IMG/VR virus record: IMGVR_UViG_3300021400_000219
Coordinates: 121,970 to 139,573 of that record
Source of the DNA: a virus
DNA: 17,604 nucleotides
Reading direction: 5' to 3' (one strand)
Part shown: in pieces, positions 5,067 through 17,076 of the stretch
Numbering within the stretch: position 1 is the first letter of the stretch
How the letters are laid out: each line of letters starts with the position of its first letter
Position numbers and translations under genes: made by a program
The notes under the pieces: generated by a model
What the model was told of the DNA's origin: nothing
What the model saw: the letters and a program-made list of their open reading frames with translations, nothing else
Databases searched by the model: none

Positions 5067-5069
5067 TAG

Positions 5070-5145
5070 TGGGGGGTCTGCGCGCGGCGGCACCGGCCGT
5101 TATCGGGACGCGCGTGTGTGTGCGTGTGTCGCTTTAAAGAGCTAA
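5070..5145 (+). repeat. GC-rich element A, with alternating purine-pyrimidine runs: GCGCGCG...CCGGCCGTTA...CGCGCGTGTGTGTGCGTGTGTCGC...CTTTAAAG..CTAAAG
   Basis: One of five related copies. The others are at about 1085-1215, 10410-10480, 14045-14125 and 16950-17040. Each ends in CCCGGG or the gene-end hairpin. Confidence 0.55.
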
Positions 5146-5170
5146 AGCGCCCGGGAGAGTTAGCGAGGGC

Positions 5171-5458
5171 TTACCCCTCGCTCGTATCTACTCCCAGAAT
5201 AATCAACAGACTACAGATAGTGCCCCACGCATGGACGCCCATGTCCTCAGGGATTGCATCCCACACATCAGGATACAGACGGCGCACACCAGAGAGAAGC
5301 ATCCCGCCCCAGTTACCACCGCAAGCGGTACACAAGTCAAGGAAATCTTTAAAACTCATTTTAGTTTTCTGCGCCATGCACGCATAGACAACAACTTCAT
5401 CGCCCCACTCGTTCCGCACAGTATCAAGGGCTTCCATGAAATCAGAATGAAGAATCAT
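5171..5458 (-). CDS. Hypothetical protein (95 aa)
   Basis: Its start overlaps the stop of the upstream small basic gene (ATGA overlap at 5455-5458), with AAAGGAG 8 nt upstream. The TAA stop is in the loop of the CGAGGG/CCTCG hairpin. Confidence 0.65.
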   Translation of the reverse strand: MILHSDFMEALDTVRNEWGDEVVVYACMAQKTKMSFKDFLDLCTACGGNWGGMLLSGVRRLYPDVWDAIPEDMGVHAWGTICSLLIILGVDTSEG

Positions 5459-5601
5459 CTTGCACACTCCTTTCTCAAATCAGCTTTCAGATGGTGGCGA
5501 GCCATCCGCCGACAACTTCTCTTAATGTTTCTGTTGGAATAGGAATCAGTCCAGTAACGCCCACGGCGCAGACCCACACTCTTAGCCTTGAAGTTATTCA
5601 T
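5455..5601 (-). CDS. Small, very basic protein (48 aa, R/K-rich), possibly nucleic-acid binding
   Basis: Internal ATG of track ORF 5455..5673, preceded by AGAGGGAGGAA. Promoter TTGACA-17-TATACT at 5632-5660. First gene of a two-gene operon. Confidence 0.55.
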   Translation of the reverse strand: MNNFKAKSVGLRRGRYWTDSYSNRNIKRSCRRMARHHLKADLRKECAR

Positions 5602-5716
5602 TGCTTTGTTCCTCCCTCTTGGATTGTCTATAGTATAGCAGATAATCAGGGATTTGTCAATACTTTTGGACAAAAAAGTTTAAGGAAATATTTTCCAGGG
5701 CCCGGGCACTTGGAAA

Positions 5717-5995
5717 TTACTCCCAAGTCCCTTCCAGATAAAGCTGGATAATTCTAGTAGCCATTTTCTTGGGCTCCAGCATAGTCACGTCATCCTCATC
5801 CCAAGGGAACTGATAGGATTCAACCATTCCCTTGTCACTCCCATAGGTACCAGCATGACAAGCAACATCACCTTCATGCCAAGGGAAACGCAACTGCATC
5901 CCTTCAAAAATAGGATTAACAGTGAAAGGAACGCTTGCAAAAGTCAGGCAGGCAATCACAGCATTAATAGCATCAGTATACTTGTTAGTGAACAT
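5717..5995 (-). CDS. Hypothetical protein (92 aa)
   Basis: Start at the ATG at 5993-5995, preceded by AAAGGAGGAA. Promoter TTGACA-17-TACAAT at 6026-6054 with a short conserved leader (GACTACAGTAAAACAAAGGAGG). The TAA stop is in the loop of the ACTTGG/CCAAGT hairpin. Confidence 0.7.
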   Translation of the reverse strand: MFTNKYTDAINAVIACLTFASVPFTVNPIFEGMQLRFPWHEGDVACHAGTYGSDKGMVESYQFPWDEDDVTMLEPKKMATRIIQLYLEGTWE

Positions 5996-6025
5996 TTTTT
6001 GTTCCTCCTTTGTTTTACTGTAGTC

Positions 6026-6054
6026 ATTGTACCACATGGTAAAGCATTTGTCAA
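6026..6054 (-). promoter_or_regulatory. Promoter TTGACA-17-TGgTACAAT with an upstream UP-like element (AATTCCATTAAATTTTTTTGAAAAA)
   Basis: Hexamers and spacing. The same roughly 50-bp upstream module recurs at 1625-1665, 6583-6635, 7351-7395, 8589-8633 and 9181-9225. Confidence 0.65.
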
Positions 6055-6115
6055 TAGGTTTTTCAAAAAAATTTAATGGAATTTTTTTCCAGTTACCCGG
6101 GCGTGTGCTGGAAAT

Positions 6116-6295
6116 TTATTCCAGCACTTCCACCTCTTCCCAATCCCAAAACTCTTCATTAGGATTCCAGAATGTGGCAAAATCATCACATTCATCAATG
6201 GCAGAAACTCCCAGTTTACAGCGTCCATCCTTTTCCCAGTAGGGACAATCCCAGCCGTTGACAGTGCAGTAAATAACCATTCTTTTTTCTTTCAT
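6116..6295 (-). CDS. Small Cys-rich acidic protein (59 aa, C-x6-C-x8-C-x9-C), possibly metal-binding
   Basis: Under the track threshold. Its ATG overlaps the TGA of gene 6292..6504 as an ATGA overlap. GGAAAGTGATACA sits before the ATG. The TAA stop is in the loop of the GCTGGAA/TTCCAGC hairpin next to CCCGGGCG. Confidence 0.5.
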   Translation of the reverse strand: MKEKRMVIYCTVNGWDCPYWEKDGRCKLGVSAIDECDDFATFWNPNEEFWDWEEVEVLE

Positions 6296-6504
6296 TGTAT
6301 CACTTTCCTTTCTTCAAGTTCACAATCTTCACGAGTCATTAGATAATCAAACTCTTTCAAGCACTCATAGTTTCCCGCAAGCGCATACTCTACAATATCT
6401 CTTGCAGTAGTCCAAGCAATGTAGTTTTCAGCATCGCAATGGTCAATCCTTGCATCAAAGATGTGGCGCAGGGTATCCACAATTTCAGACGAGATAATAT
6501 ACAC
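6292..6504 (-). CDS. Hypothetical protein (70 aa, GTG start)
   Basis: ORF-track frame. GGAAGGTGATACATT precedes the GTG. Promoter TTGACA-17-TATACT at 6554-6582 with the conserved leader UUGUUCCAAGGGAAGG. Confidence 0.55.
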   Translation of the reverse strand: MYIISSEIVDTLRHIFDARIDHCDAENYIAWTTARDIVEYALAGNYECLKEFDYLMTREDCELEERKVIQ

Positions 6505-6647
6505 AATGTATCACCTTCCTATTGGATTTGTTTCCTTCCCTTGGAACAACTATAGTATAGCACAGCAGAGGGTCTTTGTCAATACTAAATTGAAAAAAAT
6601 TTGATGGAATTTTTGGAAATGTTTTCCAGTGCCCGGGTGATGGTGAC

Positions 6648-6827
6648 TTAGTCACCATCCCTTTCTTCAAATTCACATACAGGACAAATAAAATCTCTAA
6701 AGTCTTCCTCTTCCCAATCAGATTCATAGATAGGCTCGCCGCACTCGGGACAATTATAAAATCGTTCATCCCAATTTACGAAACCGCCGAATACATTTTC
6801 AACAATCTTTGCATTCAGTTCCCACAT
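6648..6827 (-). CDS. Small zinc-ribbon-like acidic protein (59 aa, CPEC...CPVC, D/E-rich C-terminus)
   Basis: Internal ATG of track ORF 6648..6908, preceded by AAGGAGGT with 7 nt spacing. That SD site overlaps the stop of the upstream 34-aa peptide gene. The TAA stop is in the loop of the GGTGAC/GTCACC hairpin. Confidence 0.6.
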   Translation of the reverse strand: MWELNAKIVENVFGGFVNWDERFYNCPECGEPIYESDWEEEDFRDFICPVCEFEERDGD

Positions 6828-6840
6828 GGAATTTACCTCC

Positions 6841-6945
6841 TTACCAACCAAAAATCCGAGAGAGTATAACAAGTATTGCATCAAATACAGCTCCAATACC
6901 AATGGCACCCATAATCATCCAAAATAAAACATCCATGTCTTTCAT
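6841..6945 (-). CDS. Tiny hydrophobic membrane peptide (34 aa, MKDMDVLFWMIMGAIGIGAVFDAILVILSRIFGW)
   Basis: Hand translation. GAGGGAGGT sits 6 nt before the ATG. Promoter TTGACT-16-TATACT at 6975-7002 sits immediately upstream with no other ORF available. Single transmembrane segment. Confidence 0.45.
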   Translation of the reverse strand: MKDMDVLFWMIMGAIGIGAVFDAILVILSRIFGW

Positions 6946-7041
6946 GTTATTACCTCCCTCATTTCTGTAATTATAGTATACCACAAATTATCCAAAAGTC
7001 AAGTTACAATTTGGTTACAAACACCCGGGCGCGAAGGTGAC

Positions 7042-7281
7042 TTAGTCACCCTCATTCGTCTTCATTGGAAACAGGTCGTCCAGATTGGTAACACCTGGAA
7101 TAAATTCAGTAATAAAAGAAAAAGGTCTTGCTTCTGCCAATTCTACGTTGTCAATGTCCCACACATCATCAAAGGCTTCTTCGCACGGCGGGCGTAATCC
7201 CTTCCAAAATTTGGTTTCTGCTTCCTCTGCGGTTTCCGCTTCAATCATGCAATAACCAGAAAAATCAATGTACCATTTCAT
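7042..7281 (-). CDS. Small highly acidic protein (79 aa), candidate DNA-mimic or anti-defence protein
   Basis: ORF-track frame. AAAGGAG sits 9 nt before the ATG. Promoter TTGACA-17-TATACT at 7322-7350. The TAA stop is in the loop of the same GGTGAC-tta-GTCACC hairpin used by 6648..6827. Confidence 0.7.
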   Translation of the reverse strand: MKWYIDFSGYCMIEAETAEEAETKFWKGLRPPCEEAFDDVWDIDNVELAEARPFSFITEFIPGVTNLDDLFPMKTNEGD

Positions 7282-7321
7282 TAGATGATACTCCTTTCAT
7301 TTCTTTTCTTAGGTTGAGTAT

Positions 7322-7350
7322 AGTATAACACTTCACAGGGCATTTGTCAA
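7322..7350 (-). promoter_or_regulatory. Promoter TTGACA-17-TGtTATACT for acidic gene 7042..7281
   Basis: Consensus hexamers and an extended -10. Confidence 0.65.
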
Positions 7351-7439
7351 TAGAAAATTGAAAAAAATTTAATGGAATTTATTCCCATTTACCCGGGCGC
7401 GTTAGCTGCTGCTAACTCTGGAAGAAAAAGGAAGGGGGA

Positions 7440-7805
7440 TTACTCCCCCTTCACCTGGAAGCGGCTGACCCGCTTCTCCACAACCTTCTCCACGGTTCCA
7501 GCTTCTACCAGCTGGCGCAGAAGGGCGGAAGCCTGCTGGCTGGAAGAGAGTTCCAGTTCGGCGGCTACTTCCTTCGCCTGCATAGGCTCGTGGTCAGTCA
7601 GCAGTTCAACGATGCGGGCCTTGATACCCTCGTTTTCAATCTGCTTCTTGGTGGGCTTGCGCTCGCCCTTGGACTTGGAAGCGTTCCGCTTCTCATAGCT
7701 GGCCTTGCAAGCAACCAGCTTTTCCATGGCTTCCTCGTTGAAGTCAGCGGGCAGGGAAGCAATAGCCATTTCCAGAGCCTTCACATAAGTCATCTTGTTA
7801 GTCAT
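7440..7805 (-). CDS. Family A winged-helix-like DNA-binding protein, paralog 3 (121 aa)
   Basis: Start set to the ATG at 7803-7805 (GGTAGTGCATACT context). The C-terminus (...VEKRVSRFQVKGE) parallels paralog 1. The stop is in the loop of the AAGGGGGA/TCCCCCTT hairpin. Two tandem promoters at 7880-7908 and 8019-8047. Confidence 0.75.
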   Translation of the reverse strand: MTNKMTYVKALEMAIASLPADFNEEAMEKLVACKASYEKRNASKSKGERKPTKKQIENEGIKARIVELLTDHEPMQAKEVAAELELSSSQQASALLRQLVEAGTVEKVVEKRVSRFQVKGE

Positions 7806-8117
7806 AGTATGCACTACCTTTCTCTGTTTTAACGAGTTCAGCTCTCAATCTGTTTTGTTCTTTCCCTTACTGTGGCTTTATTATACCACAGGTTCAGGGG
7901 TTTGTCAAGAGTTTTTTTGAATTTCTCTTGATTTTTTTGGAGCCATTTTTTAGGTGGGCTACTTCCAACACCCGACTGTTGGCGGTTTTTTAGGTGCGCT
8001 CCCTCACCCGACATCATTATATTACCACAGGTTGCTCCATTTGTCAAGGGTTTTTTCAAAAGTTTTTTCTGGAATTTCTACCAAGATTTTCCAGCGACCC
8101 GGGCGAGTTAGCGGGGG

Positions 8118-8495
8118 TTAACCCCGCTTGTACTCTTTAGTGCCCATAGAGTAAGGAATGTTGTACATCTCACAAGCTTCAATGGCGTACCCGATTGCCA
8201 GATTTGCCATTTCCTGGGCTTGCTCATACTTTCTGTTAGGGGTAATCTTGTAAAGAAAATGGTCATTCTGAACCTGTTCAAACAAGTAGGACATTTTCAG
8301 TCGTGCATGAGCTTCGACGGCAAGCCGCTCAGATTTGGTAGCTTTTGGCATTTTAATCCATGCTAAACACTGAAAATGTTCATTCTGTCTGATGCTGGAA
8401 AGACGCTGTGCTGGGGTGTCTTTGCCAGTTTCACCCAGCTTGAAAACACCATTCTTACGGCAGAAATAATTAAAACCAGTATAAAAGCAAGCCAT
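8118..8495 (-). CDS. Hypothetical protein (125 aa)
   Basis: ORF-track frame. Promoter TTGACA-17-TATACT at 8560-8588. The TAA stop is in the loop of the AGCGGGG/CCCCGCT hairpin next to CCCGGGCG. Confidence 0.65.
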   Translation of the reverse strand: MACFYTGFNYFCRKNGVFKLGETGKDTPAQRLSSIRQNEHFQCLAWIKMPKATKSERLAVEAHARLKMSYLFEQVQNDHFLYKITPNRKYEQAQEMANLAIGYAIEACEMYNIPYSMGTKEYKRG

Positions 8496-8649
8496 TATTC
8501 ATTCTCCATTCATTTTTTATTGATTGGGGTTTACCTTCGTTCCCCTCAACCTTGATTATAGTATAGCAGATAGGAATGGATTTGTCAATACCTTTTTTCA
8601 AATTTTTTAATGGAATTTTTTTCCAGTTGCCCGGGCGCAGGAGTTAGCA

Positions 8650-8955
8650 TTAGCTAACTCCATTTTCTTCCAGACAAAATTCAAAACTCAAATCTTTTAC
8701 CACTTTTTGGGAAATGTATTCACGCACAAGGAAAAGCTCTAAATCTCTAGCCTGCTCCTCTACATAGCTACGGCGCAAATCGCGCACAGTGGAAAGATTT
8801 ACCATCGGGTATTCCATAGGATAACCACGCGCAACCACAATTACATTGTAAAGATTTTCCACGGGGTTCACCCTCATTCTCTTTTTCTTCTGGAATTTAT
8901 TGGTTTTATTGCGTTCAACTTTCGTTCTAAATTCTTTCATTTTTGCCTTGCTCAT
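8650..8955 (-). CDS. Hypothetical protein with a basic N-terminus (101 aa)
   Basis: Start set to the ATG at 8953-8955, which overlaps the TGA of the upstream membrane-protein gene (ATGA). The TAA stop lies in the loop of the GTTAGC-atta-GCTAAC palindrome. Confidence 0.6.
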   Translation of the reverse strand: MSKAKMKEFRTKVERNKTNKFQKKKRMRVNPVENLYNVIVVARGYPMEYPMVNLSTVRDLRRSYVEEQARDLELFLVREYISQKVVKDLSFEFCLEENGVS

Positions 8956-9119
8956 GAGAACACACCCCCAAAATGAAGCACCCAAAATAAACAACAAACC
9001 CCACTCATTGCCATTTCAATATACAAAACAGGGCGGTAATTATCCTCGGCAGTATCCAGCTCTTTCCAGCTCCAAAGGAAAATCACCATTAGCACAATCG
9101 CAATAATCAAATCTTTCAT
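8952..9119 (-). CDS. Small membrane protein (55 aa, one N-terminal transmembrane helix)
   Basis: Internal ATG of track ORF 8952..9140, preceded by CAGGAGGT 7 nt upstream. Promoter TTGACA-17-TATACT at 9152-9180. Confidence 0.6.
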   Translation of the reverse strand: MKDLIIAIVLMVIFLWSWKELDTAEDNYRPVLYIEMAMSGVCCLFWVLHFGGVFS

Positions 9120-9261
9120 TTTAATTACCTCCTGGTTCATTTCTTGAGTATAGTATAACAGATGGGAGAGGATTTGTCAATACCTTTTTTAGAAAAATTT
9201 ACTGGAAATGTTTTCCAAGTGCCCGGGCGGCGCTTTAGCGCACTGAAGCGCTAAAGCATCC

Positions 9262-9615
9262 TCACTTTCTGGGGGCTGATAATACTACTTTGTATTTAGT
9301 ATTTTCAAACGTAAAAATAAACTCTCTTTCTACGTTGGTTATTTCTAACGCTTCCCCGCCATTTTCATTTATTGCGGTTGTGAGAATATCCATTATTGCG
9401 CGTTTTGCGTTGTTTGCTTTACGTTCCTTTTTGGGGAATTTATAAGCGGATACTTTGCGGTCAGCTTGACGCATTTTTTTTGCTACTTTCTGTTGTTCAG
9501 AATTTAACTCAAAAAGTTTTGCCCCGTGGTCTATTGCATCATCATCAGCTAATACTTGTTTAGCTTCTTCCTCTGTCAAATCTAATACCTGCATTAAATG
9601 TTCGATTCTCTCCAT
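9262..9615 (-). CDS. Family B protein, paralog 2 (117 aa). Co-transcribed with the family A gene upstream
   Basis: AAAGGGGGT sits 8 nt before the ATG. There is no promoter or terminator between it and 9645..10019. The TGA stop is followed by the GCTTTAGCGC/GCGCTAAAGC hairpin. Confidence 0.75.
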   Translation of the reverse strand: MERIEHLMQVLDLTEEEAKQVLADDDAIDHGAKLFELNSEQQKVAKKMRQADRKVSAYKFPKKERKANNAKRAIMDILTTAINENGGEALEITNVEREFIFTFENTKYKVVLSAPRK

Positions 9616-9644
9616 TTTTATTTACCCCCTTTTTGGGGAGGGGG

Positions 9645-10019
9645 TTAAACCCCCTCACCCATGGCCTTGAAATAAGTAATGCGCTTATCTACGTACTTAT
9701 CTACCATTCCGTTCAGGTAGAGCGTCCGCAGAAGTCCGCTCACCCTCTGGGAAGTCGCATCGTTCAGAGCGGGAACACCTGCGCAGATTTCAGAGATACG
9801 GAAACCTCTGTCCACATCTTCCCGCAGGAAATCCAGAATTTCCGCACGGACGGCGTCGTTCTCTGCCTGCTTTGCGCTAGGCTTGCGGGGAGCGGTGTTC
9901 TTCTTAATGGCCTGTTCCTTCATCTTCTCCAGCTTTTCCACAACATCCGTCATGTCAGCGGGAACGTAGGACAGAGCAACTTCCAGAGCCTTAACAGTAG
10001 TCATCTTATTGGTAGCCAT
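9645..10019 (-). CDS. Family A winged-helix-like DNA-binding protein, paralog 4 (124 aa)
   Basis: Start at the ATG at 10017-10019 (AGTGAGTGATACT context). It is almost identical to paralog 2 over the C-terminal 70 aa. The TAA stop is in the loop of the GGGGAGGGGG/CCCCCTCACCC hairpin. Tandem promoters at 10073-10101 and 10225-10253. Confidence 0.75.
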   Translation of the reverse strand: MATNKMTTVKALEVALSYVPADMTDVVEKLEKMKEQAIKKNTAPRKPSAKQAENDAVRAEILDFLREDVDRGFRISEICAGVPALNDATSQRVSGLLRTLYLNGMVDKYVDKRITYFKAMGEGV

Positions 10020-10072
10020 AGTATCACTCACTTTCTCTGTTTGTGGGGTTTATCAGCTCCCCTTGATGTATT

Positions 10073-10101
10073 AAGTATAGCACAGGTTGAAGGGTTTGTC
10101 A
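10073..10101 (-). promoter_or_regulatory. Proximal promoter TTGACA-17-TGcTATACT for family A gene 9645..10019. A distal promoter TTGACA-17-TATATT lies at 10225-10253
   Basis: Consensus hexamers. Tandem double promoters are seen before all four family A genes. Confidence 0.6.
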
Positions 10102-10629
10102 AGAGTTTTTTGCAGTTTTTCTGATTTTTTTTGTGAGAACCACGAATGGAAAAAACTCTCAAAAAATTATCGTTTGAAACTCTGTCCCTAGGGCTTTGGG
10201 GCCCCTTGCCCTTTGGACAAGTATAATATAACACATTGGGGCGCGTTTGTCAATACTGATTTGAAAATTTGGGGGCATTCTCTGTTTTGCACAATTTTGA
10301 TGCAAAAATTGCGTCATTTTTGTGCATTTTGACGGCGCGCCCGGGTGAACTACCAATTTCAGGAAAAGCTGGGGTCAAGAGAGAACAAGGAAATTCATTG
10401 AAAAATTTGGTAACGATTTCCAGCGCGCGACACCGGAACCCCTGGGCCGTGTGCGTGTGCGACGGGTGCACGCAGTATTTATTTATACAAGCGGAACTAA
10501 TAGAAAAATCAATTTAAAATATTTATACATATTTATTTATTATTAAGGGTACCGGCGCAATTCTCAAATCAAAAACCTTCCAGGTCTATTTACTTCTGGA
10601 AAATGAAATAAAAATAGGGGCTGATTTAT

Positions 10630-10731
10630 TTTCAAAAATGAGATGAAAAAACGAGAGTATTTCTTTCGTAGATTCAAAGGAAACAATTTCGTTTTTCAAT
10701 CCAAAAATCATAAGGAAACACTCTCGTTTTT
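10630..10731 (-). terminator. Large hairpin terminator (12-bp stem AAAAACGAGAGU/ACUCUCGUUUUU with a roughly 60-nt loop), followed by a second terminator at 10566-10601
   Basis: Perfect 12-bp inverted repeat at 10647-10658 and 10720-10731, followed on the minus strand by UCAUCUCAUUUUUG. The second hairpin, UUCCAG-N12-CUGGAA, is followed by GGUUUUUGAUUUG. Confidence 0.5.
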
Positions 10732-10735
10732 CAAT

Positions 10736-10888
10736 TCAGAAATCTTCAATTTTTTTATTTTTTTCTTTGGCTCGATTATACTCTGAACCTTTGCCCTTTT
10801 TATTAGCTATTCTTTTGGACCTTTTCCGCAGAGTATTTAAACCATCACCATCAGTCTTTTTAATTTCTTTAACGGTTTTTTCATCCAT
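10736..10888 (-). CDS. Small lysine-rich basic protein (50 aa, MDEKTVKEIKKTDGDGLNTLRKRSKRIANKKGKGSEYNRAKEKNKKIEDF)
   Basis: Hand translation; under the track threshold. GGGAGGT sits 9 nt before the ATG, which lies just after the TAA of HAD gene 1. Its TGA stop is immediately followed by a large terminator hairpin at 10647-10731 and a second terminator. Confidence 0.45.
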   Translation of the reverse strand: MDEKTVKEIKKTDGDGLNTLRKRSKRIANKKGKGSEYNRAKEKNKKIEDF

Positions 10889-10891
10889 TTA

Positions 10892-11341
10892 TTAAAGACC
10901 TCCCAGAACTTCAAGAATATTATTTACATCATAGGCATTTCCGCCTGCATTATTCCATTCAATTCTATTTCTTTCTTCATCATCAAACAGGATGCCGATT
11001 TCATTTACTACGGTACTTTTGGGGGTGCCATAGGAAACAATTTTCACATCATCAAAATGGACGCTTGCCAGATGTTTTTTTAACCACATCTTTTTTGCTT
11101 CTGTTACAACCTTGTTGTAATCGGGGTTATCTTCCTTAGAGAGCCAAGAGACAACACCAATTTTCCATCCAAGGGCCTGTAACTTGTTCAGCTTGTGGGC
11201 CAGCGCAGAAAGCCGAATCAGGGGTTTTGCGATTTCATAGGGAAGGGGATTTCTCTCAATTAGATAGGAGAGCCAATTTTCCACGCCATACAGATCGGCA
11301 ATAGTCCCATCCATGTCGAAATAAATAGCCTTGTTCATCAT
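10892..11341 (-). CDS. HAD-superfamily hydrolase, 5'(3')-nucleotidase-like, paralog 1 (149 aa)
   Basis: Motif I (IYFDMDGTIADL) and motif IV (GILFDDEE). Start set to the ATG at 11339-11341, downstream of promoter TTGACT-17-TATTAT at 11390-11418. The 30-aa N-terminal extension in the track is translated leader. Confidence 0.7.
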   Translation of the reverse strand: MMNKAIYFDMDGTIADLYGVENWLSYLIERNPLPYEIAKPLIRLSALAHKLNKLQALGWKIGVVSWLSKEDNPDYNKVVTEAKKMWLKKHLASVHFDDVKIVSYGTPKSTVVNEIGILFDDEERNRIEWNNAGGNAYDVNNILEVLGGL

Positions 11342-11485
11342 TCTGACCAACCCTTTCTTTAAAAGGTTTTTTATCTTTTCTGTATTATTATAATACCAAA
11401 TTTTTTTATAAAAGTCAATAGGGAATCGCAAATTTTAGAAGTTTGTGCAATTTGCACAAAAGCGCCCGGGCGAGTTACCCTGTGC

Positions 11486-11725
11486 TTACAAGGTAACTTT
11501 GCACTGTCTAAAATCATGCCACAGATGGGGCTGAGTCAGCGGAGACCGCAGGGAATAAGCTTGGTATTGCAAGAAAGATAAAATGCGGATTTCTGTTATT
11601 GTAGTTTCATCATCTAAATCAAACTTTTTATTTATTACAGAGCCGTGCAATCTGCCAGGGGTTTTTGCAAAAACTTTAGTAGTAAAACCAAACGGGTCCA
11701 TAATCTTAATCTCATAATAATTCAT
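11486..11725 (-). CDS. Hypothetical protein (79 aa). Second gene of an operon. Its 3' extent is uncertain
   Basis: ATG at 11723-11725, preceded by AAAGGAGAA 9 nt upstream. The C-terminal third reads through a hairpin-rich region, so the gene may be shorter than annotated. Confidence 0.45.
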   Translation of the reverse strand: MNYYEIKIMDPFGFTTKVFAKTPGRLHGSVINKKFDLDDETTITEIRILSFLQYQAYSLRSPLTQPHLWHDFRQCKVTL

Positions 11726-11765
11726 TTTTTTATTCTCCTTTCTTTTGGCGTATTCTTTCGGGGTT

Positions 11766-11927
11766 TTATCCCCGAAAGATAACATTTCCAGAGAGGTTAT
11801 TTACAAGCTTGACAGGCTCGTTTTTAACCATGGCCAGGGTTTCGGCCAGAATCTTAATGGCCCGCAGGTCATTCATAGAGGAAACGGGGGTCTTGCCCAC
11901 GTAGATGGTAAACAGAGTGATATTCAT
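11766..11927 (-). CDS. Small hypothetical protein (53 aa)
   Basis: Internal ATG, preceded by AAGGAGGT 7 nt upstream. Promoter TTGACA-17-TATAAT at 11960-11988. The TAA stop is in the loop of the 10-bp stem TCTTTCGGGG/CCCCGAAAGA. Confidence 0.55.
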   Translation of the reverse strand: MNITLFTIYVGKTPVSSMNDLRAIKILAETLAMVKNEPVKLVNNLSGNVIFRG

Positions 11928-12046
11928 TGAAGTTACCTCCTTATTCATTTCGTACCCTTATTATAAGCGATGTTTTGCGATTTGTCAAGGGGTTTATGCG
12001 ATTTTTCTTCTGGAATTTTTTGGTTATGGCGCCCGGGTGGCTGGCC

Positions 12047-12490
12047 TTACCCGATATGGGCGGCCAGCCAAGCCAGCATCTTTTTGCTTTCTTTAGCGCA
12101 CCGGATTTTCATCCCGCCGCCGTTCTTCTGGCTTTCCCGCTCGGTCTTGCAGAACTCGGTGCAGAAGGCGGTGAACTCGTCCCGGTTCATCATATAGACC
12201 TGATAATCGGCGGTAACGTAGGCCCAGAGGTTGCTGTGGGTGCGCTCCATATAGAGGGCCCAGATTTCATCATAAGTTTCCCGGCCTTCGCACAGGGTGG
12301 CGCTCATAAGGGTGAAGGCAGAAGCCTTGACGGAGATGAGCATTTCACCAAGCTCGATATCAGAGCCTTTGTCATATGCACCGCTATCATGGGTGGTGCG
12401 GTCGATGCCCATATAGTGGCACAGATCGTGCTCACGGGCAATGCCCTTATTAGTAGCGGGGGAAACGTGGTCAATCTTGAAGGTCTTCAT
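12047..12490 (-). CDS. Hypothetical protein (147 aa)
   Basis: Start at the ATG at 12488-12490, preceded by AGGAAAGGGAG. Promoter TTGACT-17-TATACT at 12522-12550. The TAA stop is in the loop of the GGCTGGCC/GGCCAGCC hairpin. The overlapping plus ORF 11927..12523 is rejected. Confidence 0.65.
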   Translation of the reverse strand: MKTFKIDHVSPATNKGIAREHDLCHYMGIDRTTHDSGAYDKGSDIELGEMLISVKASAFTLMSATLCEGRETYDEIWALYMERTHSNLWAYVTADYQVYMMNRDEFTAFCTEFCKTERESQKNGGGMKIRCAKESKKMLAWLAAHIG

Positions 12491-12726
12491 CTGAAGCACT
12501 CCCTTTCCTTAGGATGGTTATAGTATAGCACCATTCCCCGGGATAGTCAATACAAAATCGCAAATTTCCCCTTGTGCAAATTATACAAATGTTGGAGCGG
12601 ATTTTTGGGGGCTGTTGTGCAAGTTGCACAATTAGTGTAACCTGGGTCACATTAAAAGTAACAAAAGAGTTACAATCTCTAACAATCAATTACAATCTTT
12701 TTTTTACTTTCAAAACACTTTTTTTA

Positions 12727-12911
12727 AGTTAGCAGTTAGCAAAGGGTAATGCTAGTTAGCACAAGCTAATTGTTGTTAGTTCGAACTAACTCCGGTTAGC
12801 AGGGACTAACTGGAGTTAGCCTAGGCTAACTTTAGCACACTAAAGCTGTAGCGATTTAGCGAACTAAAGTGCGCCGGACCTGGCAATTTGAACAATTAGC
12901 GGCTGCTAACT
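12727..12911. repeat. Array of eight short palindromes of the GTTAGC-N4-6-GCTAAC or TTTAG-N4-CTAAA type
   Basis: Read directly from the sequence: AGTTAGCAGTTAGCA, TTAGCacaaGCTAA, GTTAGTTCGAACTAAC, GGTTAGcagggaCTAAC, AGTTAGCCTAGGCTAACT, CTTTAGcacaCTAAAG, TTTAGcgaaCTAAA, TTAGCggctGCTAA. The same palindrome type sits at nearly every gene junction. Confidence 0.7.
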
Positions 12912-13169
12912 TTGTGCATTTTGACGAGGTTTCGGGATTCGTCAAGTTGCACAAAAATGTAACCAAATTGTAACCAAAATTTGTGCAATTTGACGGTGGC
13001 GCGAACTCGGCTGCCAACGACTGCGCTGGGCCACAGTGCACTCGTTGGCGGCCGGTTCGTCATTTTGCACAAATGCGTGCGTGCGAGGGGCCTTAACTTT
13101 ATGCATTATGACGAAAAAAAATTTTTGTGCAAAATGACGAATCAAATCCTGATTCGTCAAAATGCACAA

Positions 13170-13463
13170 AAAAAGAGGCATTGCCCGGCCTCATCGGGGG
13201 GAAGCTTGACGCCCTTCCCTGGCGGTGGTGTCCACTTTCGGGGACACGCCCGGCTCCGTTTGCTAGCCGCAGGAGCGTCGCGGCGCTGGGGTCGTTCCCT
13301 TGCCCCTTGGGGAACTTGATGGCCTCCATTTCTATCCCGCGGCCTTGGGGGCGGCCTAGCTACTTTGTGGGGAGTATCGCCCACGTTTCGCCGACGCGGC
13401 TGGGATTTTGGTGTCATCGCGCATCCCGTGCGCTCAAGAGGGACAAGTCAACCTCTTTTCTAT
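13170..13463 (-). ncRNA. Candidate GC-rich structured non-coding RNA of about 290 nt
   Basis: Promoter TTGACA-17-TATAAT at 13470-13498 on the minus strand. Intrinsic terminator GAGGC-N8-GCCUC followed by U7, at 13167-13192 in plus coordinates. GC content is far above the window average. There is no SD site and no conserved ORF. It contains a GTGTCCCC-GAAA-GTGGACAC tetraloop hairpin and a GUGGGCGAUACUCCCCAC hairpin. Confidence 0.45.
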
Positions 13464-13540
13464 GGTCTTATTATAGCACCCGCAAGGGGTTTTGTCAAGG
13501 GTTTTTTCTTTTTTTTTTTTTGTTCCCGGAGGGCCGGGGC

Positions 13541-13699
13541 TTAGTAGCCCCAGCCGATGGAGGTTACCCTCCATCCCTCCTCCCGCAGTGCGGGATAAAG
13601 GGCGGCGAAACTCGCCAACCCGTGTTCCCACACACGGGACTCACAGGCCCACAGGCCAGTGAAGAGGTTCCGATGGAACCGGATGTATTCAATTTTCAT
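13541..13699 (-). CDS. Small hypothetical protein (52 aa, W-rich)
   Basis: Internal ATG of track ORF 13541..13816, preceded by AAAGGAGGT. Promoter TTGACA-17-TATAAT at 13720-13748 with the conserved leader GATTACAGTAAAACAAAGGAGG. The TAA stop is in the loop of the GGGGCT/AGCCCC hairpin. Confidence 0.55.
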   Translation of the reverse strand: MKIEYIRFHRNLFTGLWACESRVWEHGLASFAALYPALREEGWRVTSIGWGY

Positions 13700-13759
13700 G
13701 GAAGTGACCTCCTTTGTTTTACTGTAATCATTATAGCAGACCCGCCCGGGTTTGTCAAC

Positions 13760-13925
13760 CCTTTTTTTCATTTTTTTTATTTTTTTTTGGTTCCCCATAC
13801 CCCTCCGGGGAACCACTGGCCGGCTATTTTTTACCTCCCGCCCTAGGGGGTGGCCCTTGGTACTTTGTGGGGTATCTTGCCCACGTTTCCCAGAGGGAGG
13901 GCCCGGAGGGTTTCCCCTCCTGACA
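13760..13925 (-). ncRNA. Second GC-rich non-coding segment, a partial paralog of the 13170-13463 RNA
   Basis: It shares about 30 nt with the other RNA (GAAACGUGGGC.AGAUAC.CCCACAAAGUA). It lies downstream of a weaker promoter, TAGACT-17-TATTAT, at about 13930-13960. It ends in the hairpin GGUUCCCC...GGGGAACC, followed by an A-rich run rather than a U-run. Confidence 0.3.
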
Positions 13926-14007
13926 TGATTATAATACCACAGGCCCGGCTAAAAGTCTATTGACAAATCTCACAAATCGGGATGTTCTATTTTGTGCATT
14001 TTTACTC

Positions 14008-14037
14008 TTGACAGCCGAGCCTATTTTGTGGTATAAT
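14008..14037 (+). promoter_or_regulatory. Plus-strand promoter TTGACA-18-TGgTATAAT, transcribing into GC-rich element B
   Basis: Near-consensus hexamers. The conserved upstream sequence GCATTTTTACTCTTGACA is shared with the promoter at 16916. Confidence 0.55.
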
Positions 14038-14138
14038 ATTTCTGTACTGCCTGCGCGCGCGGTCGCCGGCCGTTAGCGGGGGCTAACTGTGCCTGGGTGT
14101 GCGCCTTTATTGCAATAAAGCACTAAAGTGCACAAGGG

Positions 14139-14171
14139 CAAAAAACTACGAGGATTTTTTAATCCTCGTAG
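14139..14171 (-). terminator. Intrinsic terminator overlapping the stop codon of 14159..14290
   Basis: CUACGAGGAU-UAA-AAAAUCCUCGUAG followed by UUUUUUG. The stop codon is in the loop. Confidence 0.65.
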
Positions 14172-14290
14172 TCAATGGCGATGACCTTCCAGCCCTTGGG
14201 CGGTTCGTAGTTTTCCGGCAGGCCCTTCCAGAGAATCAATTCAGTATCGGCCCACTCTCCATCAATCTTTCTGATTTCAATGCTCCACAT
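14159..14290 (-). CDS. Small hypothetical protein (43 aa)
   Basis: Internal ATG of track ORF 14159..14383. Promoter TTGACA-17-TATAAT at 14343-14371 and a leader of the AAUCAGAAAGAGGGAAGGAAAACC type. The TAA stop is in the loop of terminator ACGAGGAU/AUCCUCGU, followed by UUUUUUG. Confidence 0.5.
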   Translation of the reverse strand: MWSIEIRKIDGEWADTELILWKGLPENYEPPKGWKVIAIDYED

Positions 14291-14385
14291 AATCTTTTTT
14301 CCTTTCTGGTTTGTTAGGTTTTCCTTCCCTCTTTCTGATTGTATTATAGCAGACTCAACCGGGTTTGTCAACCCCTTTTTCAAAT

Positions 14386-14529
14386 TTATTTAATTCTTTT
14401 TACTTTGATAACCTTAGCCCCAGAGTATTCAGCTTTTCCCTCTTTCAGAAATTTGCGGTTAGGATTGACAAGGGTGATGGTAGATTCTTCGCCGCAAAGG
14501 CTGATGGTAATTTCATAAATCTTTTTCAT
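14386..14529 (-). CDS. Small hypothetical protein (47 aa)
   Basis: Hand translation. Promoter TTGACA-17-TATAAT at 14563-14591 has no other ORF downstream of it. GGAAAGGAAA sits before the ATG. Confidence 0.4.
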   Translation of the reverse strand: MKKIYEITISLCGEESTITLVNPNRKFLKEGKAEYSGAKVIKVKRIK

Positions 14530-14609
14530 TTTTTTTCATTTCCTTTCCTTTTTTCTGTCTTTATTATAGCATCGGCCGGGCGATTTGTCAACCCCTTTTT
14601 TGAAATTTT

Positions 14610-14756
14610 TTAGGGAAATTTATCTCTCCCTAAAAAACAATCCCGCATAAATTCCAACTGTTCCAGAGAAAAGCGGGCCGCAAATTGTGCGGGCGTCTCT
14701 TCAAAGAGATGGTATCCGTTGGCAACCATTTCCATTACAACTTCCAGCTTTTTCAT
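14610..14756 (-). CDS. Small hypothetical protein (48 aa)
   Basis: Internal ATG, preceded by AAAGGAGGAA. Promoter TTGACA-16-TATAAT at 14787-14814. The N-terminal WYNKGTKTKEE in the track is a translated -10 element and leader. Confidence 0.55.
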   Translation of the reverse strand: MKKLEVVMEMVANGYHLFEETPAQFAARFSLEQLEFMRDCFLGRDKFP

Positions 14757-15022
14757 TTTGTGTTCCTCCTTTGTTTTTGTACCTTTATTATACCATACTT
14801 TTGGCAAATGTCAAGACCTTTTTTCAATTTTCTTTTGGTCTTTGCGGGTCCGACCCCCGCACCCTCTGAAGGGCTGTTGTCGGCTTGGAGGTCCTTCCTA
14901 CTGGGACCCCGTCCTTGATTATTATTATAGCAGATAATAGCCAAAAGTCAATTACAAAATGGTTACAATTTTATTTCAGAATGGTTACAATTTGCGCCCG
15001 GGCAAATGGGAAAAAGAGGGAA

Positions 15023-15487
15023 TTACTTCCCTCTCGCCCATGTCAGAACGTCCATAATCATTTCAGGATTGAAGGCCCAACCTTCCATTTCTTCCCACTC
15101 AATCACATTGTTTTCTTCATCGTCAAACAGAATCCCATTTTTCACGGTGGGCACTGTGCTTTTGGGCGTCCCATAGGGAACAATGTTGATTTCATCAAAG
15201 TGAACGCTTGCAAGGTGTTTCTTGAGCCAATTCTTTTTGGCTTCAATAACCTTTTCGTCAAATTCCTTGTTGCTATTCTTAGCTAACCAACTAACTACCC
15301 CGATTGTCCATCCCTTTTTCTGAAGGTTATTCAACCGACGGGCAAGGGCGTTCATGTTTACCAGAGGCTTAGCAACTTCATAGGGGAAGGGATTGTTTTC
15401 CAGTAGATAACCCAGCCAGTTTTCTACGCCGTAGAAGTTGGCGATTGTTCCATCCATGTCAAAGTAGATTGCCCGATTGATTTTCAT
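15023..15487 (-). CDS. HAD-superfamily hydrolase, 5'(3')-nucleotidase-like, paralog 2 (154 aa)
   Basis: IYFDMDGTIANF and GILFDDEE motifs. AAAAGGAG sits 9 nt before the ATG. Promoter TTGACA-16-TATACT at 15519-15546. The TAA stop is in the loop of the GAGGGAA/TTCCCTC hairpin. Confidence 0.75.
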   Translation of the reverse strand: MKINRAIYFDMDGTIANFYGVENWLGYLLENNPFPYEVAKPLVNMNALARRLNNLQKKGWTIGVVSWLAKNSNKEFDEKVIEAKKNWLKKHLASVHFDEINIVPYGTPKSTVPTVKNGILFDDEENNVIEWEEMEGWAFNPEMIMDVLTWARGK

Positions 15488-15590
15488 TTTGTTCAGCTCC
15501 TTTTCTTTTTCTGATTATAGTATACCACAAATTCCGGGATTGTCAAGAGTTTTTTTCAAAAAAATCAAAAAACTTTTTTCAAAAAACCTC

Positions 15591-15619
15591 TTGACAAATT
15601 GAAAAAACTGTGATACAAT
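15591..15619 (+). promoter_or_regulatory. Plus-strand promoter TTGACA-17-TGtGATACAAT, whose transcript starts AAAGGGGGAAUUA followed by U19
   Basis: It sits back-to-back with the minus promoter of HAD gene 2 (15519-15546). The two -35 regions form an inverted repeat, CCTCTTGACAAATT. Confidence 0.55.
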
Positions 15620-15632
15620 AAAGGGGGAATTA

Positions 15633-15651
15633 TTTTTTTTTTTTTTTTTTT
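15633..15651 (+). repeat. Homopolymeric T19 tract at +15 of a plus-strand transcript
   Basis: Counted directly. A second tract, T26, lies at 17475-17500 in the same context. There are also T13 at 13511-13523 and T-runs at 13766-13790. Confidence 0.8.
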
Positions 15652-15705
15652 GGTTAGCTTAGGCTAACTTAGGTTAGTATGTGCTAACTACCCGGGCGCA
15701 AGAAA

Positions 15706-16026
15706 TCAGCCCTTGGGCTGATTCTCGCAAGCCTTTTTATTATTGTTCAGGGTTTTCATTAAAGACTTGGGGCACTTTTCGCAGTTGTGGCAATTCTTGT
15801 AAATGCTGATTCCCTGACTAACAGTTGCGATAAACATTGTTACCAGATTGTTAGTAGTTGCATTGTATACAATCACAATCCCCTTTTCAGTGAGAACAAC
15901 CTTGCCATCGTTGTTGTCGTAGGTTTCTGCGATTGCAGGCCCAAACTCGCCCTTGCAATAGTCGATGATGTAGGAAATTCTTTCCATCCTCTCAACCTTG
16001 GCGTGATAACTGACTTTCTTTGTCAT
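15706..16026 (-). CDS. Hypothetical protein (106 aa) with a C-terminal Cys cluster (CHNCEKC)
   Basis: ATG at 16024-16026, preceded by AAAAGGGG 9 nt upstream. Promoter TTGACA-17-TATACT at 16060-16088. Confidence 0.6.
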   Translation of the reverse strand: MTKKVSYHAKVERMERISYIIDYCKGEFGPAIAETYDNNDGKVVLTEKGIVIVYNATTNNLVTMFIATVSQGISIYKNCHNCEKCPKSLMKTLNNNKKACENQPKG

Positions 16027-16149
16027 TTTTGACAACCCCTTTTCTTATTTTCTGACTAAAGTATAGCACACATTCCCGCAGTTGTCAATACCTTTTTTCA
16101 AATTTTTTCAGATTTTTTTGAACCGGGCGAATGGAAAAAGCTGGAAGTG

Positions 16150-16479
16150 TTACCACTCCCAGCCATCAAACCAACCATCATACCGAACAGAAACAATCTC
16201 ATCGTCATAGATAATGGGGGTATTTCTGTCATACATTACCATTGACACAATGTCACCCACAATCCAGTCACCTTCGCAATCTGTAAAGCACCATTCATTC
16301 CCGTTGAAATCCTTGCAGGTGACAAGTTTGCACTCGTCGTTGATTTCTACTATCACAGTTGTCATTGCATACAGGTTAGCAGTCTTTCCGCTTGCGGCGT
16401 CAGCGTTCACACTTGCGCCGATGCACATACCGCACACCATAACCACCAAAAGAACCATCACACTAATCAGCTTTTTCAT
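16150..16479 (-). CDS. Secreted Cys-rich small protein with an N-terminal Sec signal peptide (109 aa)
   Basis: MKKLISVMVLLVVMVCGMCIGASVNA followed by DAA, which is a typical signal peptide with an AxA cleavage site. AAAGGAGGAAAA sits 6 nt before the ATG. Promoter TTGACA-16-TATAAT at 16510-16537. Confidence 0.7.
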   Translation of the reverse strand: MKKLISVMVLLVVMVCGMCIGASVNADAASGKTANLYAMTTVIVEINDECKLVTCKDFNGNEWCFTDCEGDWIVGDIVSMVMYDRNTPIIYDDEIVSVRYDGWFDGWEW

Positions 16480-16585
16480 TTTGTTTTCCTCCTTTGTTTT
16501 ACTGTAATCATTATACCATACTTTTGGAATTTGTCAAGAGGTTTTTTCAAATTTCCCGGAAAATCTTTTGAGAGGGTTTCCCCTC

Positions 16586-16807
16586 TCAAAAAATGTTTAC
16601 CATTTCAGGCTTTACCATCTCAACAGGAAGGAAACAACCGCTTTTGCAGTAAACTTCTTGTTTCACGTTTCCATCTTTGATAACCAGACGATACACGCCG
16701 CAGGTTCTTCCAGCCGCTTCCATTTTTGCTTGTTTCCAAGCTTTTCCAAAAGCTGCAGTATCCTCAAACTCAAACCCCGCAACCTGATAAACAAACTTCT
16801 TAGCCAT
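16586..16807 (-). CDS. Hypothetical protein (73 aa)
   Basis: AAGGAAAGGGG sits before the ATG. Promoter TAGACA-17-TATAAT at 16840-16868. The TGA stop is inside terminator hairpin TTTTGAGAGGG/CCCTCTCAAAA. Confidence 0.7.
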   Translation of the reverse strand: MAKKFVYQVAGFEFEDTAAFGKAWKQAKMEAAGRTCGVYRLVIKDGNVKQEVYCKSGCFLPVEMVKPEMVNIF

Positions 16808-16915
16808 TTTAATGACCCCTTTCCTTAATTTCTATATTTATTATAGCATCCTGTAAGCTATTTGTCTATTGGTAAATTGCACAAAAAAGTTTTTGATTTT
16901 TGGGCATTTTTACTC

Positions 16916-16944
16916 TTGACATTCGCTGTAAATTGTGGTAAAAT
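16916..16944 (+). promoter_or_regulatory. Plus-strand promoter TTGACA-17-TGgTAAAAT, transcribing into GC-rich element C
   Basis: Hexamers and spacing. An upstream TTGCACAA box lies at about 16877-16884. Confidence 0.55.
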
Positions 16945-17046
16945 AAAATGGGGAGCTGTTGTTCGCGCGCGCCGAAGGCCGTTAGCGGCCGCTAACCGGG
17001 TGTGCGTGTGCGCACCTTTATAGCTTTAATGGGTTAAAGTAACCGG

Positions 17047-17076
17047 GTAAAAAAGAGAAGGACTTTTCAGTCCTTC
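17047..17076 (-). terminator. Intrinsic terminator overlapping the stop codon of 17067..17294
   Basis: GAAGGACU-GAAA-AGUCCUUC followed by UCUUUUUUACC. The stop TGA is in the loop. Confidence 0.65.

Follow-up and report, generated by a model that had tools for sequence, protein, structure and literature searches.

GC-rich elements at the early-gene cassette borders of a large uncultured rumen/gut phage as possible 5' domains of antisense transcripts

The elements described in this article are five GC-rich repeats, named e1 to e5 from left to right, in a stretch of the IMG/VR virus record IMGVR_UViG_3300021400_000219 (positions 121,970 to 139,573; 17,604 nucleotides, hereafter the window). Their closest described counterparts are found in other phages and in bacterial chromosomes. 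The oop RNA of phage lambda is a single-copy, cis-antisense RNA with a defined terminator and with cII as its target. It resembles what is predicted for the window in that a constitutive host-type promoter located 3' of a gene fires back into the 3' end of this gene, creating a non-coding transcript. However, the system of the window comprises several copies per genome and a large GC-rich 5' domain, and no plus-strand terminator is predicted for e2, e4, and e5. The REP/BIME of enterobacteria are chromosomal palindromes that are not coupled to promoters and depend on a RAYT transposase. Like the window elements, they are GC-rich, orientation-specific, multicopy, imperfect palindromes that follow gene ends, but no RAYT-type transposase was seen among the window proteins scanned. 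The Bs-RNase III hairpins of SP82, a large Firmicutes phage, are said to be conserved stem-loops in the intergenic parts of the early region, carried by the sense mRNA. Herein, the likeness is one of description, and, as opposed to these hairpins on sense mRNA, it is the antisense strand by which the window elements are defined. The RNase III hairpins of SP82 early mRNA (Panganiban and Whiteley 1983) are cited in a passage of PMC4838370. For the Kayvirus phage K, small non-coding RNAs were found by RNA-seq in the early region of the terminal repeat (PMC9241854).

Passages of PMC2839356 and PMC4122927 describe the promoter-early stem-loops (PeSLs) of T4-type phages as mobile regulatory cassettes. 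As in that description, the window repeats an early sigma-70-type promoter and a stem-loop between small, variable early genes, and here, too, the indels and replacements between strains break at a repeated motif. The differences are as follows: the phage is not T4-type, its nearest isolates by a marker protein being Enterococcus phages of ~140 kb and Phass-1; the borders add the motif CCCGGGCG and a palindrome; and e2, e4, and e5 lie behind an extra antisense promoter, which is outside the definition of a PeSL given in these passages. The cassettes of the window are, hence, probably to be seen as an analogue of PeSLs and not as a member, set apart by phage group and by description. For the five elements, the reading favored here—a plausible one, although it falls somewhat short of an even chance—is that they form structured 5' domains of antisense transcripts made by the host RNA polymerase within mobile, PeSL-like early-gene cassettes.

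The five elements and the promoters in front of them

The window is an early, host-takeover type region of a large uncultured rumen/gut phage, whose parent contig has a length of ~170 kb. Small genes are densely arrayed on its minus strand, each with a near-consensus extended -10 promoter (TTGACA-17-TGnTATAAT), and amount to ~35 cassettes of promoter, gene, and terminator; two independent promoter scans find ~35 consensus promoters on this strand. A hairpin or terminator is present at each gene end. The upstream regions, the 5' leaders, and the gene-end hairpins are highly repetitive, and repeat families of 40 to 87 nt with 5 to 20 copies each span the promoter together with its upstream region. 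With a GC content of 42%, the DNA is just moderately AT-rich, although a first-pass annotation made from the letters alone had taken the genome to be AT-rich. Positions 1-13536 are identical to the 174-kb contig ENA ERZ28612966 scaffold_111, from which the window departs beyond the T-run at its far right end, and several strain variants exist. The protein encoded at 2844-3536 on the minus strand (phrog_20187) serves as the marker: its nearest named phages are the ~140-kb Enterococcus phages and Phass-1 with 35 to 43% identity, whereas uncultured IMG/VR and metagenome contigs match at 54 to 81% identity. The strain and relative loci that were compared carry L-numbers; among these, L183 is a strain of 95% and L147 a relative of 81% identity.

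The pattern GCGCGC-N15-45-GTGTGC occurs at exactly five sites of the window, all of them on the plus strand (1094, 5080, 10423, 14053, and 16965), against 0.02 expected in shuffles, and none of 200 shuffles reaches five. The scan, thus, returns the five elements that the first-pass annotation had listed and nothing else, and no further copy exists in the 7 to 8 kb flanking the window on each side. All five are positioned at cassette borders of the early-gene array. The common layout ascribed to them, meaning a GGCCGTTAGCGG hairpin followed by CTTTAnnGC and TAAAG, is found in full only in e4 and e5, in part in e2 and e1, and in its barest form in e3; e2 has GTTATC, e1 lacks GGCCGT, and e3 lacks the CTTTA/TAAAG tail.

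On the plus strand, e4 (14044-14128) consists of TGCGCGCGCG, GCCGGCC-GTTAGC-GGGG-GCTAAC, CCTGGG-TGTGCGCC, and CTTTA..TAAAG hairpins. The architecture of e5 (16948-17040, plus strand) is ATGGGGAGCTGTTGTT, CGCGCGCGC, GGCC-GTTAGC-GGCC-GCTAAC, CCGGG-TGTGCGTGTGCGCAC, and, again, CTTTA..TAAAG hairpins. Both have orthologs in L183 that stay behind the same promoters; herein, the cores are conserved, whereas the leader of e4 diverged. In e2 (5069-5149, plus strand), GTGGGGGG, TGCGCGCG, and GGCCGTTATCGG are followed by a 22-nt alternating ACGCGCGTGTGTGTGCGTGTGT tract and a GCTTTA..TAAAGC hairpin. The shortest layout is that of e3 (10422-10476, plus strand) with GCGCGCG, CCGG..CTGG, CGTGTGC, the hairpin GTGTGCG-ACGGG-TGCACGC, and then GTATTTATTT. 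Last, e1 (1076-1216, plus strand) contains an ATGGGGG leader, GGGCGCGCGG, an inner GC hairpin, GGTGTGCCC, CGTGTGAGC-CCTTATAGCC, and CTTTAAAG repeats; its core (1092-1148) is unchanged in five strain variants and has a diverged ortholog in L147. It extends further than first delimited, with its true 3' block CGTGTGAGC at 1165-1173; in front of e1, at 930-1075 on the plus strand, lie two e-like units in tandem, both of them degenerate, which begin with TGCATATG(G/A)G and end with CGTGTGAGC. Herein, TGCATATG is found at 956, 1003, and 1072, and CGTGTGAGC at 939, 1055, and 1165. The leader (A/U)UGGGG that had been assigned to the transcripts is present as (A/T)TGGGG in the DNA of e1, e2, and e5, but not in e4, whose leader is ATTTCTGTACTGCC.

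Plus-strand promoters of gene-promoter quality number only five in the window (5038, 14008, 16916, 15591, and 17433), and three of them precede elements. For these three (5038, 14008, and 16916), two independent scans agree with the first-pass annotation that they lie directly before an element. The antisense promoter of e2 (5038-5066, plus strand) reads TAGACA-17-TG-TAAAAT, with TTGCACAA on its 5' side at 4998-5005. That of e4 (13991-14037, plus strand) reads TTTGTGCA-N9-TTGACA-18-TG-TATAAT, whereby the promoter at 14008 is a 12/12 match, and that of e5 (16916-16944, plus strand) reads TTGACA-17-TG-TAAAAT, has TTGCACAA at 16877-16884, and stands back to back with the minus-strand promoter at 16868. 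By the scans, all three match the gene promoters in quality. They point towards the 3' ends of the minus-strand genes at 5171-5458, 14159-14290, and 17067-17294, so that the convergence noticed earlier is real and e2, e4, and e5 share with oop a promoter directed against a gene 3' end. The plus strand downstream of the promoters contains no consistent open reading frame, again as described before.

The 3' ends are a different matter. The RNAs had been expected to end at bidirectional gene-end hairpins, but the hairpins after e4 and e5 have a T-run on the minus strand only. The terminator hairpin of the convergent gene 14159-14290 (14146-14171, minus strand) is in the scan list on neither strand, and the terminator of gene 17067-17294 (17057-17076, minus strand) lies in the path of e5 transcription. 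A candidate intrinsic terminator that would give a short antisense RNA is found only in e3, whose second hairpin scores as terminator-like on the plus strand (10452-10474).

In the favored reading, the elements would be lineage-specific copies of a GC-rich module at the borders of mobile early-gene cassettes. In e2, e4, and e5, this module would start ~5-15 nt past the expected start of a strong sigma-70/sigma-A promoter that opposes the early genes. The host RNA polymerase would make an early non-coding antisense RNA with the GC-rich element as its 5' end, wherein the (CG)n run and the (UG)n run 3' of it would form a stem of G-C and G.U pairs around a variable inner hairpin. A 5' domain as compact as this would protect the RNA against 5'-end-dependent decay, and the RNA would be expected to accumulate. 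The transcript would then enter the terminator and the 3' end of the convergent early gene, where antisense pairing or polymerase collision would insulate or damp the neighboring cassette. The promoter-less copies e1 and e3 would be relics or would be reached by read-through.

Beside the e1 array lies the extremely AT-rich region 600-900 (10-16% GC), with minus-strand TTGATT-17-TATAAT promoters at 430, 851, and 922. Plus-strand TATAAT-ATAA(A)TGGGG starts are located at ~605-620 and 711-748, just 5' of the array, and a plus-strand transcript from this region could, judging by these motifs, cover e1.

R1 hairpins at the same position in related phages

Relatives whose marker protein is 54 to 63% identical have this kind of antisense promoter as well, with another GC-rich hairpin, named R1, behind it. 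The name denotes the hairpin as well as its covariance model, which is defined here and was built from an alignment of 20 units in related uncultured phages. The hairpin starts at +2/+3 and 8-9 nt past the -10 of the antisense consensus promoter. Its stem has 14 bp, with 91% of the cells paired, and 11 of the 14 pairs change on both sides among the 20 copies. The covariation score is 0.573, compared with 0.146 for shuffles and 0.07-0.10 for slid-partner controls, with the caveat that template-switch correction during replication can also keep inverted repeats complementary without selection on an RNA. A hairpin is selected at this position in the relatives. The loop has ~12 nt, is purine-rich, and ends with GCGC(Y).

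The model finds 70 distinct copies, all of them antisense to genes and, in L170, about one per cassette. A complete promoter at the fixed distance accompanies 32 of these; another 28 have only TTGACA by the hairpin, and 10 have neither. The group of 28 lost the spacer and the -10, yet TTGACA is kept 5-9 nt from the stem. Carriers include L002, L004, L008, L152, L156, L159, L163, L167, L169, and L170 among others, each with the unit on the minus strand of the locus.

The promoter modules connect the two systems. At e4 as well as in several relatives (e.g., L159_9130, L008_13808, and L008_8901), the distance from TTTGTGCA to TTGACA is exactly 9 nt, and the extended form TTTGTGCA-N9-TTGACA-17/18-TGnTATAAT is found at e4, more loosely at e5, and in several units of L004, L008, L159, L167, and L170. 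By this comparison, the antisense promoter modules of the window and of its relatives appear homologous. Around homologs of the gene beside e5, the 95% relative keeps e4 and e5, whereas relatives of 60-62% have R1-type hairpins instead. Both systems combine a homologous type of antisense promoter, a GC-rich element with the stem base (C)GGCGCGC...GCGCGCC(G), and the terminator of a convergent gene; compared by eye, UUCGGGCGCGC...GGUGUGCCC of e1 is like uCGGCGCGC...GCGCGCCGa of R1. However, R1 is a clean, covarying Watson-Crick hairpin, whereas the window elements are longer, use (TG)n for the 3' arm, and have varied centers.

A broader proposal would see antisense promoter and GC hairpin together as undescribed, clade-wide, mobile non-coding units of large gut/rumen Firmicutes phages, whose abundant early RNAs act in trans through the conserved hairpin loop or the palindrome; we consider this unlikely. 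Such action could consist of a decoy that titrates a host defense or RNA-binding protein, or of the recruitment of a phage factor with which the polymerase passes the cassette terminators and silences early genes through antisense transcription.

Outside the uncultured relatives, the R1 model gives no match on the Enterococcus phage VRE9_2 and one marginal match on Phass-1. Phass-1 (L144, OQ749652.1) contains an R1-like hairpin, GCGCGCCG...CGGCGCGC, at 6861-6897 on the minus strand of the locus, which has a TTGCACAA motif beside it and is contiguous with the -10 of a facing promoter. Phass-1 may, thus, be a named and sequenced phage in which such units could be studied.

This kind of element is already known; the variant in the window and the R1 family match nothing in the libraries searched. 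The search for a known RNA family proposed in the first-pass annotation came back empty, since an E-value scan of the window against Rfam gave just two chance-level matches, both off the elements, and the same scan of three relatives gave nothing at the hairpins. In near or distant mode, GenBank phages of the INPHARED collection had no match, either to the whole window by megablast or to e5 by blastn. In IMG/VR, the strict pattern GGCCGTTAGCGGNNGCTAAC returned a single locus, L001, with the generic palindrome only, and a loose pattern at least 119 matches, of which the few in contigs below 50% GC are not element-like and the rest, in GC-rich sequence, are taken as chance. Among 185,579 species genomes of bacteria and archaea, a pattern scan gave five isolated chance matches in unrelated, GC-rich, metagenome-assembled genomes and no arrays. 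For a known GC-rich mobile element, there was no DNA match and no transposase or integrase domain in the 10 window proteins scanned. Rfam includes models of CRISPR direct repeats, and a mimic of CRISPR repeats was ruled out by size, by internal diversity, and by the lack of bacterial arrays and of any Rfam match.

Antisense RNA, cassette junction, or protein-binding site

The short structured antisense RNAs that the first-pass annotation had put forward are supported, as far as transcription is concerned, by the quality of the promoters and by the recurrence of the module in relatives with a covarying hairpin; the fold of the window copies themselves is a putative one. When trimmed, the cores of e1, e3, e4, and e5 do fold with (CG)n paired to (UG)n, 3-5 G.U pairs, and a variable inner hairpin. 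Where strains differ in the e3 hairpin, by two substitutions, the pairing is preserved in either case, and an extra G in the 5' arm of the L183 e4 ortholog would still allow a stem of 8 bp if the register shifts.

Several results weigh against the antisense RNA. The minimum-energy fold of e2 differs from the (CG)n/(UG)n fold, and the folding z-scores of e1 to e5 (-1.22, +0.79, -0.37, -0.87, and -1.00) are ordinary for the composition. All five cores fold 3-10 kcal/mol better on the plus than on the minus strand; this advantage is reproduced by shuffled sequences, with G/U richness largely accounting for it, and the comparison of sense and antisense energies was dropped as evidence because shuffles show the same bias. 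The covariation check that had been suggested for the five copies yields no consensus (RNAalifold, -7.5 kcal/mol with an unfavorable covariation term). Herein, the two stem arms, (CG)n and (UG)n, keep their sequence, and almost no covariation is, therefore, possible. In the e1 ortholog of L147, the proposed outer stem loses pairs, and other pairing is preferred. The promoter scans offer no acceptable promoter for e1 or e3, and the terminator scan predicts no plus-strand terminator after e2, e4, or e5, the next one being far downstream. The relatives add that 38 of the 70 R1 copies are without a complete promoter and that the R1 stems, with 7 G.U vs 3 A.C, show no strand bias, such counts in palindromes giving no usable strand preference; therefore, the role of the hairpin need not be in the antisense RNA. 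Finally, with filters off and E-values up to 10, none of 28 weak matches of the R1 model in the window falls on an element core, and one touches the 5' edge of e3 (10401-10426, 5.3 bits, E = 5.8). The link to R1, therefore, rests on position and not on demonstrated homology, and the window elements are positional counterparts of R1, possibly much-diverged relatives.

Among the alternatives, it is conceivable, although doubtful, that the elements act as DNA, being a variant cassette-junction module (CCCGGGCG plus a palindrome or hairpin) for recombination in a PeSL-like manner, with transcription incidental to it. CCCGGG has 22 sites in the window against 3.4 expected, roughly one per intergenic region and usually as GCCCGGGCG (examples are 1225, 1665, 2304, 2681, 5150, 7392, 9222, and 15691). 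Where strains differ, CCCGGGCG behaves as a cassette junction: cassette 2312-2688 is precisely absent from L133 with the break right after CCCGGGCG on both sides, and L129 has unrelated sequence after the same motif. Indels and replacements, thus, break at this motif as in PeSLs, the breakpoints coming from the few junctions and strain pairs examined and not from a statistical survey. CCCGGG is next to e1 at 1225 (~10 nt away), abuts e2 at 5150, and lies ~80 nt 5' of e3. In e4 and e5, the part GCCGGCC-GTTAGC represents GCCCGGGCG-GTTAGC in degenerate form, and the L183 ortholog of e4 reads CCCGGG where the window has CCTGGG. In L147, e2 together with its promoter is missing and a different upstream module stands at the same CCCGGG junction; between L008 and L169, some mosaic breakpoints fall within R1 hairpins. 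The PeSLs, as described in the passages of PMC2839356 and PMC4122927, provide a precedent. In terms of composition, degenerate forms of the generic border module, CCCGGGCG plus a TTAGC-N4-GCTAA palindrome, are found within the elements, which appear to be border modules of mobile cassettes that were extended by 5' (CG)n and 3' (TG/CG)n runs. However, ordinary junctions are without (CG)n and (TG)n arms, which leaves the arms unexplained. In addition, the antisense promoter is conserved across a clade with the marker protein at 54-63% identity, and it is, therefore, argued that transcription itself is selected. The DNA-level element of the first-pass annotation, hence, survives in part and in another form, as the generic palindrome core of e4 and e5 and the cassette breaks at CCCGGGCG, and not in the form originally given.

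The palindrome has a proposal of its own, which we regard as distinctly unlikely. In it, TTAGC-N4-GCTAA is the core, and a phage protein that binds it blocks or regulates polymerases 3' of the antisense promoter and at ordinary borders, with the GC-rich arms as flanking context; four paralogous, winged-helix-like proteins of 120 residues would be the candidates. A variant would have the antisense RNA carry these hairpins and thereby titrate an RNA-binding protein. There are 11 exact copies in the window against 0.12 expected, and 20 with up to two mismatches. They usually adjoin CCCGGGCG, and their half-sites are fixed while the 4-nt center varies. The centers of e4 and e5 are two of the 11. 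Five looser palindromes stand exactly 20 bp apart (12735, 12755, 12775, 12795, and 12815), as one would expect of an array bound on a single helix face, and another is at 12895. In a second class of antisense unit, at 15591 and in L132, such palindromes come directly next, palindromes of the GTTAG type are also present in L001 and L169, both distant relatives, and the four paralogs have a weak match to the 'transcriptional regulator' phrog_2440 (E = 9e-4). But e1 and e3 contain no such palindrome and e2 a damaged one, so that it cannot unite the five copies, and a compensatory change of T-A for C-G at 12775 fits a hairpin as well.

The array (12735-12830 and 12895-12910) is situated inside a non-coding hub of ~900 nt (12560-13450) rich in TTGCACAA/TTGTGCAA and TGACG repeats. 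It resembles an iteron or centromere-like array to which a protein binds, and may be an origin or a regulatory hub.

It is quite improbable that negative supercoiling, driven by transcription, turns the alternating (CG)n and (TG/CG)n tracts into left-handed Z-DNA, which would serve as a torsional sink or as a mark for a Z-DNA-binding protein. The alternating purine-pyrimidine runs have 22 nt in e2, 16 in e5, 14 in e3, and 10 in e4, and only 6-7 in e1; by rough arithmetic, and not by shuffles, runs of 16 and 22 would be rare in random sequence of this length. The tract lengths vary between copies and one strain lost a CG unit, as if the alternation and not the sequence were constrained. However, (CG)4 alone is short for a B-to-Z transition. 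GC-rich alternating runs of at least 9 nt are not elevated in the window (11 observed vs 11.9 in shuffles), and the L183 e4 ortholog breaks the (CG) run with an extra G while the element is kept. What is conserved at this position in the relatives is stem complementarity, and the R1 hairpins are no alternating tracts. Moreover, e2, e4, and e5 lie between converging units, where the twin-domain model would imply positive supercoiling, which disfavors Z-DNA.

Still less probable is that units of promoter and GC element are priming sites or origins, at which a host-polymerase transcript (with a G-run R-loop, or with a hairpin end like that of plasmid single-strand origins) primes phage DNA synthesis. 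G4-G6 runs do occur near the expected start in the leaders of e1, e2, and e5, and very AT-rich DNA (10-28% GC) borders e1 and e3. The R1 loops often hold (T/C/A)AGCG(T/C), which may resemble the CS-6 loop motif of ssoA origins, but this likeness spans 5-6 nt. In addition, at least five origins in 17 kb and about one per cassette in the relatives are implausible, e4 is without a G-run, and R1 transcripts start with GAAAUUU. Scarcely credible, finally, are small leaderless peptides from the ATG/GTG of the (A/T)TGGGG leader: open reading frames of 28, 21, and 15 codons start at the ATGGGG/GTGGGG of e1, e2, and e5 with a loosely similar R-A-P-x-A-V-x-G stretch in one frame, but they are ruled out by start-site geometry (the start codon is 2-4 nt past the -10, upstream of the usual start and so probably outside the RNA) and by the missing shared frame, since the matching frame of e4 lacks a start codon, e3 offers nothing comparable, the unit at 961 encodes MGCC only, and the shared stretch follows from a shared nucleotide block.

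Neighboring features and meaning for large gut phages

The two remaining plus-strand promoters, 15591 and 17433, are equally strong and drive a different unit, in which GGGGGA(A/T)T is followed by a T-run of 19-25. The first copy (15591-15700, plus strand) consists of the promoter, AAAGGGGGAATTA, T19, two GTTAG-type palindromes, and CCCGGGCG, and the second (17433-17499, plus strand) of the promoter, GGGGGATTC, and T25. In general, a consensus promoter and (A)AAGGGGGA(A/T)T are followed by a T-run, whose length differs between strains (12-30 nt), and by GTTAG palindromes; such units are also present in L132 (~1580 and ~525) and L139 (~8054). In L139, the T-run of the 17433 unit has 30 nt, and full divergence from the window sets in right after the T-run (17475-17499).

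Between CCCGGGCG and the promoter, for most minus-strand promoters, a slot holds one of three alternative motif types: TGGAAA..TTCCA inverted repeats (e.g., 6075-6095 and 8609-8630), GTTACA direct repeats (2283-2300 and 7003-7020), or TTGTGCAA/TTGCACAA inverted repeats (3629-3660 and 11442-11459). Antisense promoters are found only with the third. These motif types may be operator classes that mark regulatory groups of cassettes.

Most window proteins are without a family assignment, and ARAGORN finds no tRNA or tmRNA. The four paralogous genes mentioned above are located on the minus strand at 1714-2082, 4399-4761, 7440-7814, and 9645-10031; they have a GC content of 55-59% and encode ~120-128 residues with the winged-helix-like segment at the C terminus. 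Each is preceded by two tandem consensus promoters with a GC-rich, non-coding leader of ~100 nt between them. A pair of paralogs resembling HAD-type 5'-nucleotidases (phrog_2643, weak Pfam NT5C) is encoded at 10892-11341 and 15023-15487 on the minus strand. Two tandem open reading frames of 7 codons, MYYSGFT (1423-1446) and MYPTGFI (1338-1361, both minus strand), lie inside a leader of ~330 nt 3' of the promoter at 1621 and are preceded by the strong ribosome-binding sites GAGGTGA and GGAGGTGA. MYYSGFT is retained in L147 despite two synonymous changes and could be a leader or signaling peptide.

Between the promoter at 13498 and the terminator at 13175-13192, the region 13172-13465 (minus strand) comprises ~300 nt of up to 66% GC with no credible open reading frame. 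It shares with 13858-13895 a 30-nt motif (GAAACGTGGGC..CCCCACAAAGTA). As a structured RNA, it was rejected, its folding z-score of 0.06 showing nothing beyond composition. The more distant phage L001 (IMGVR_UViG_3300021256_000081; 1380-1460, 1840-1910, and 2560-3010) has the layout of one promoter per gene and GTTAGC-N4-GCTAAC palindromes, and its non-coding regions contain alternating tracts of another kind, with CATGCATG, ACATGCGCGCATGT, and long TG-rich runs.

R1, which matches no Rfam family, is easily testable: its 70 distinct copies covary strongly, keep one orientation, and lie at a set distance from a consensus promoter. The window elements illustrate how such a unit can be remodeled within one lineage. 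The CCCGGGCG borders provide a handle for predicting where genes are gained and lost in these phages. If the units are functional, large gut and rumen phages would build their host takeover from self-contained cassettes, each with its own promoter, terminator, and border motif and often with a counter-directed non-coding unit—a compact design by which dozens of early genes could be insulated and shuffled.

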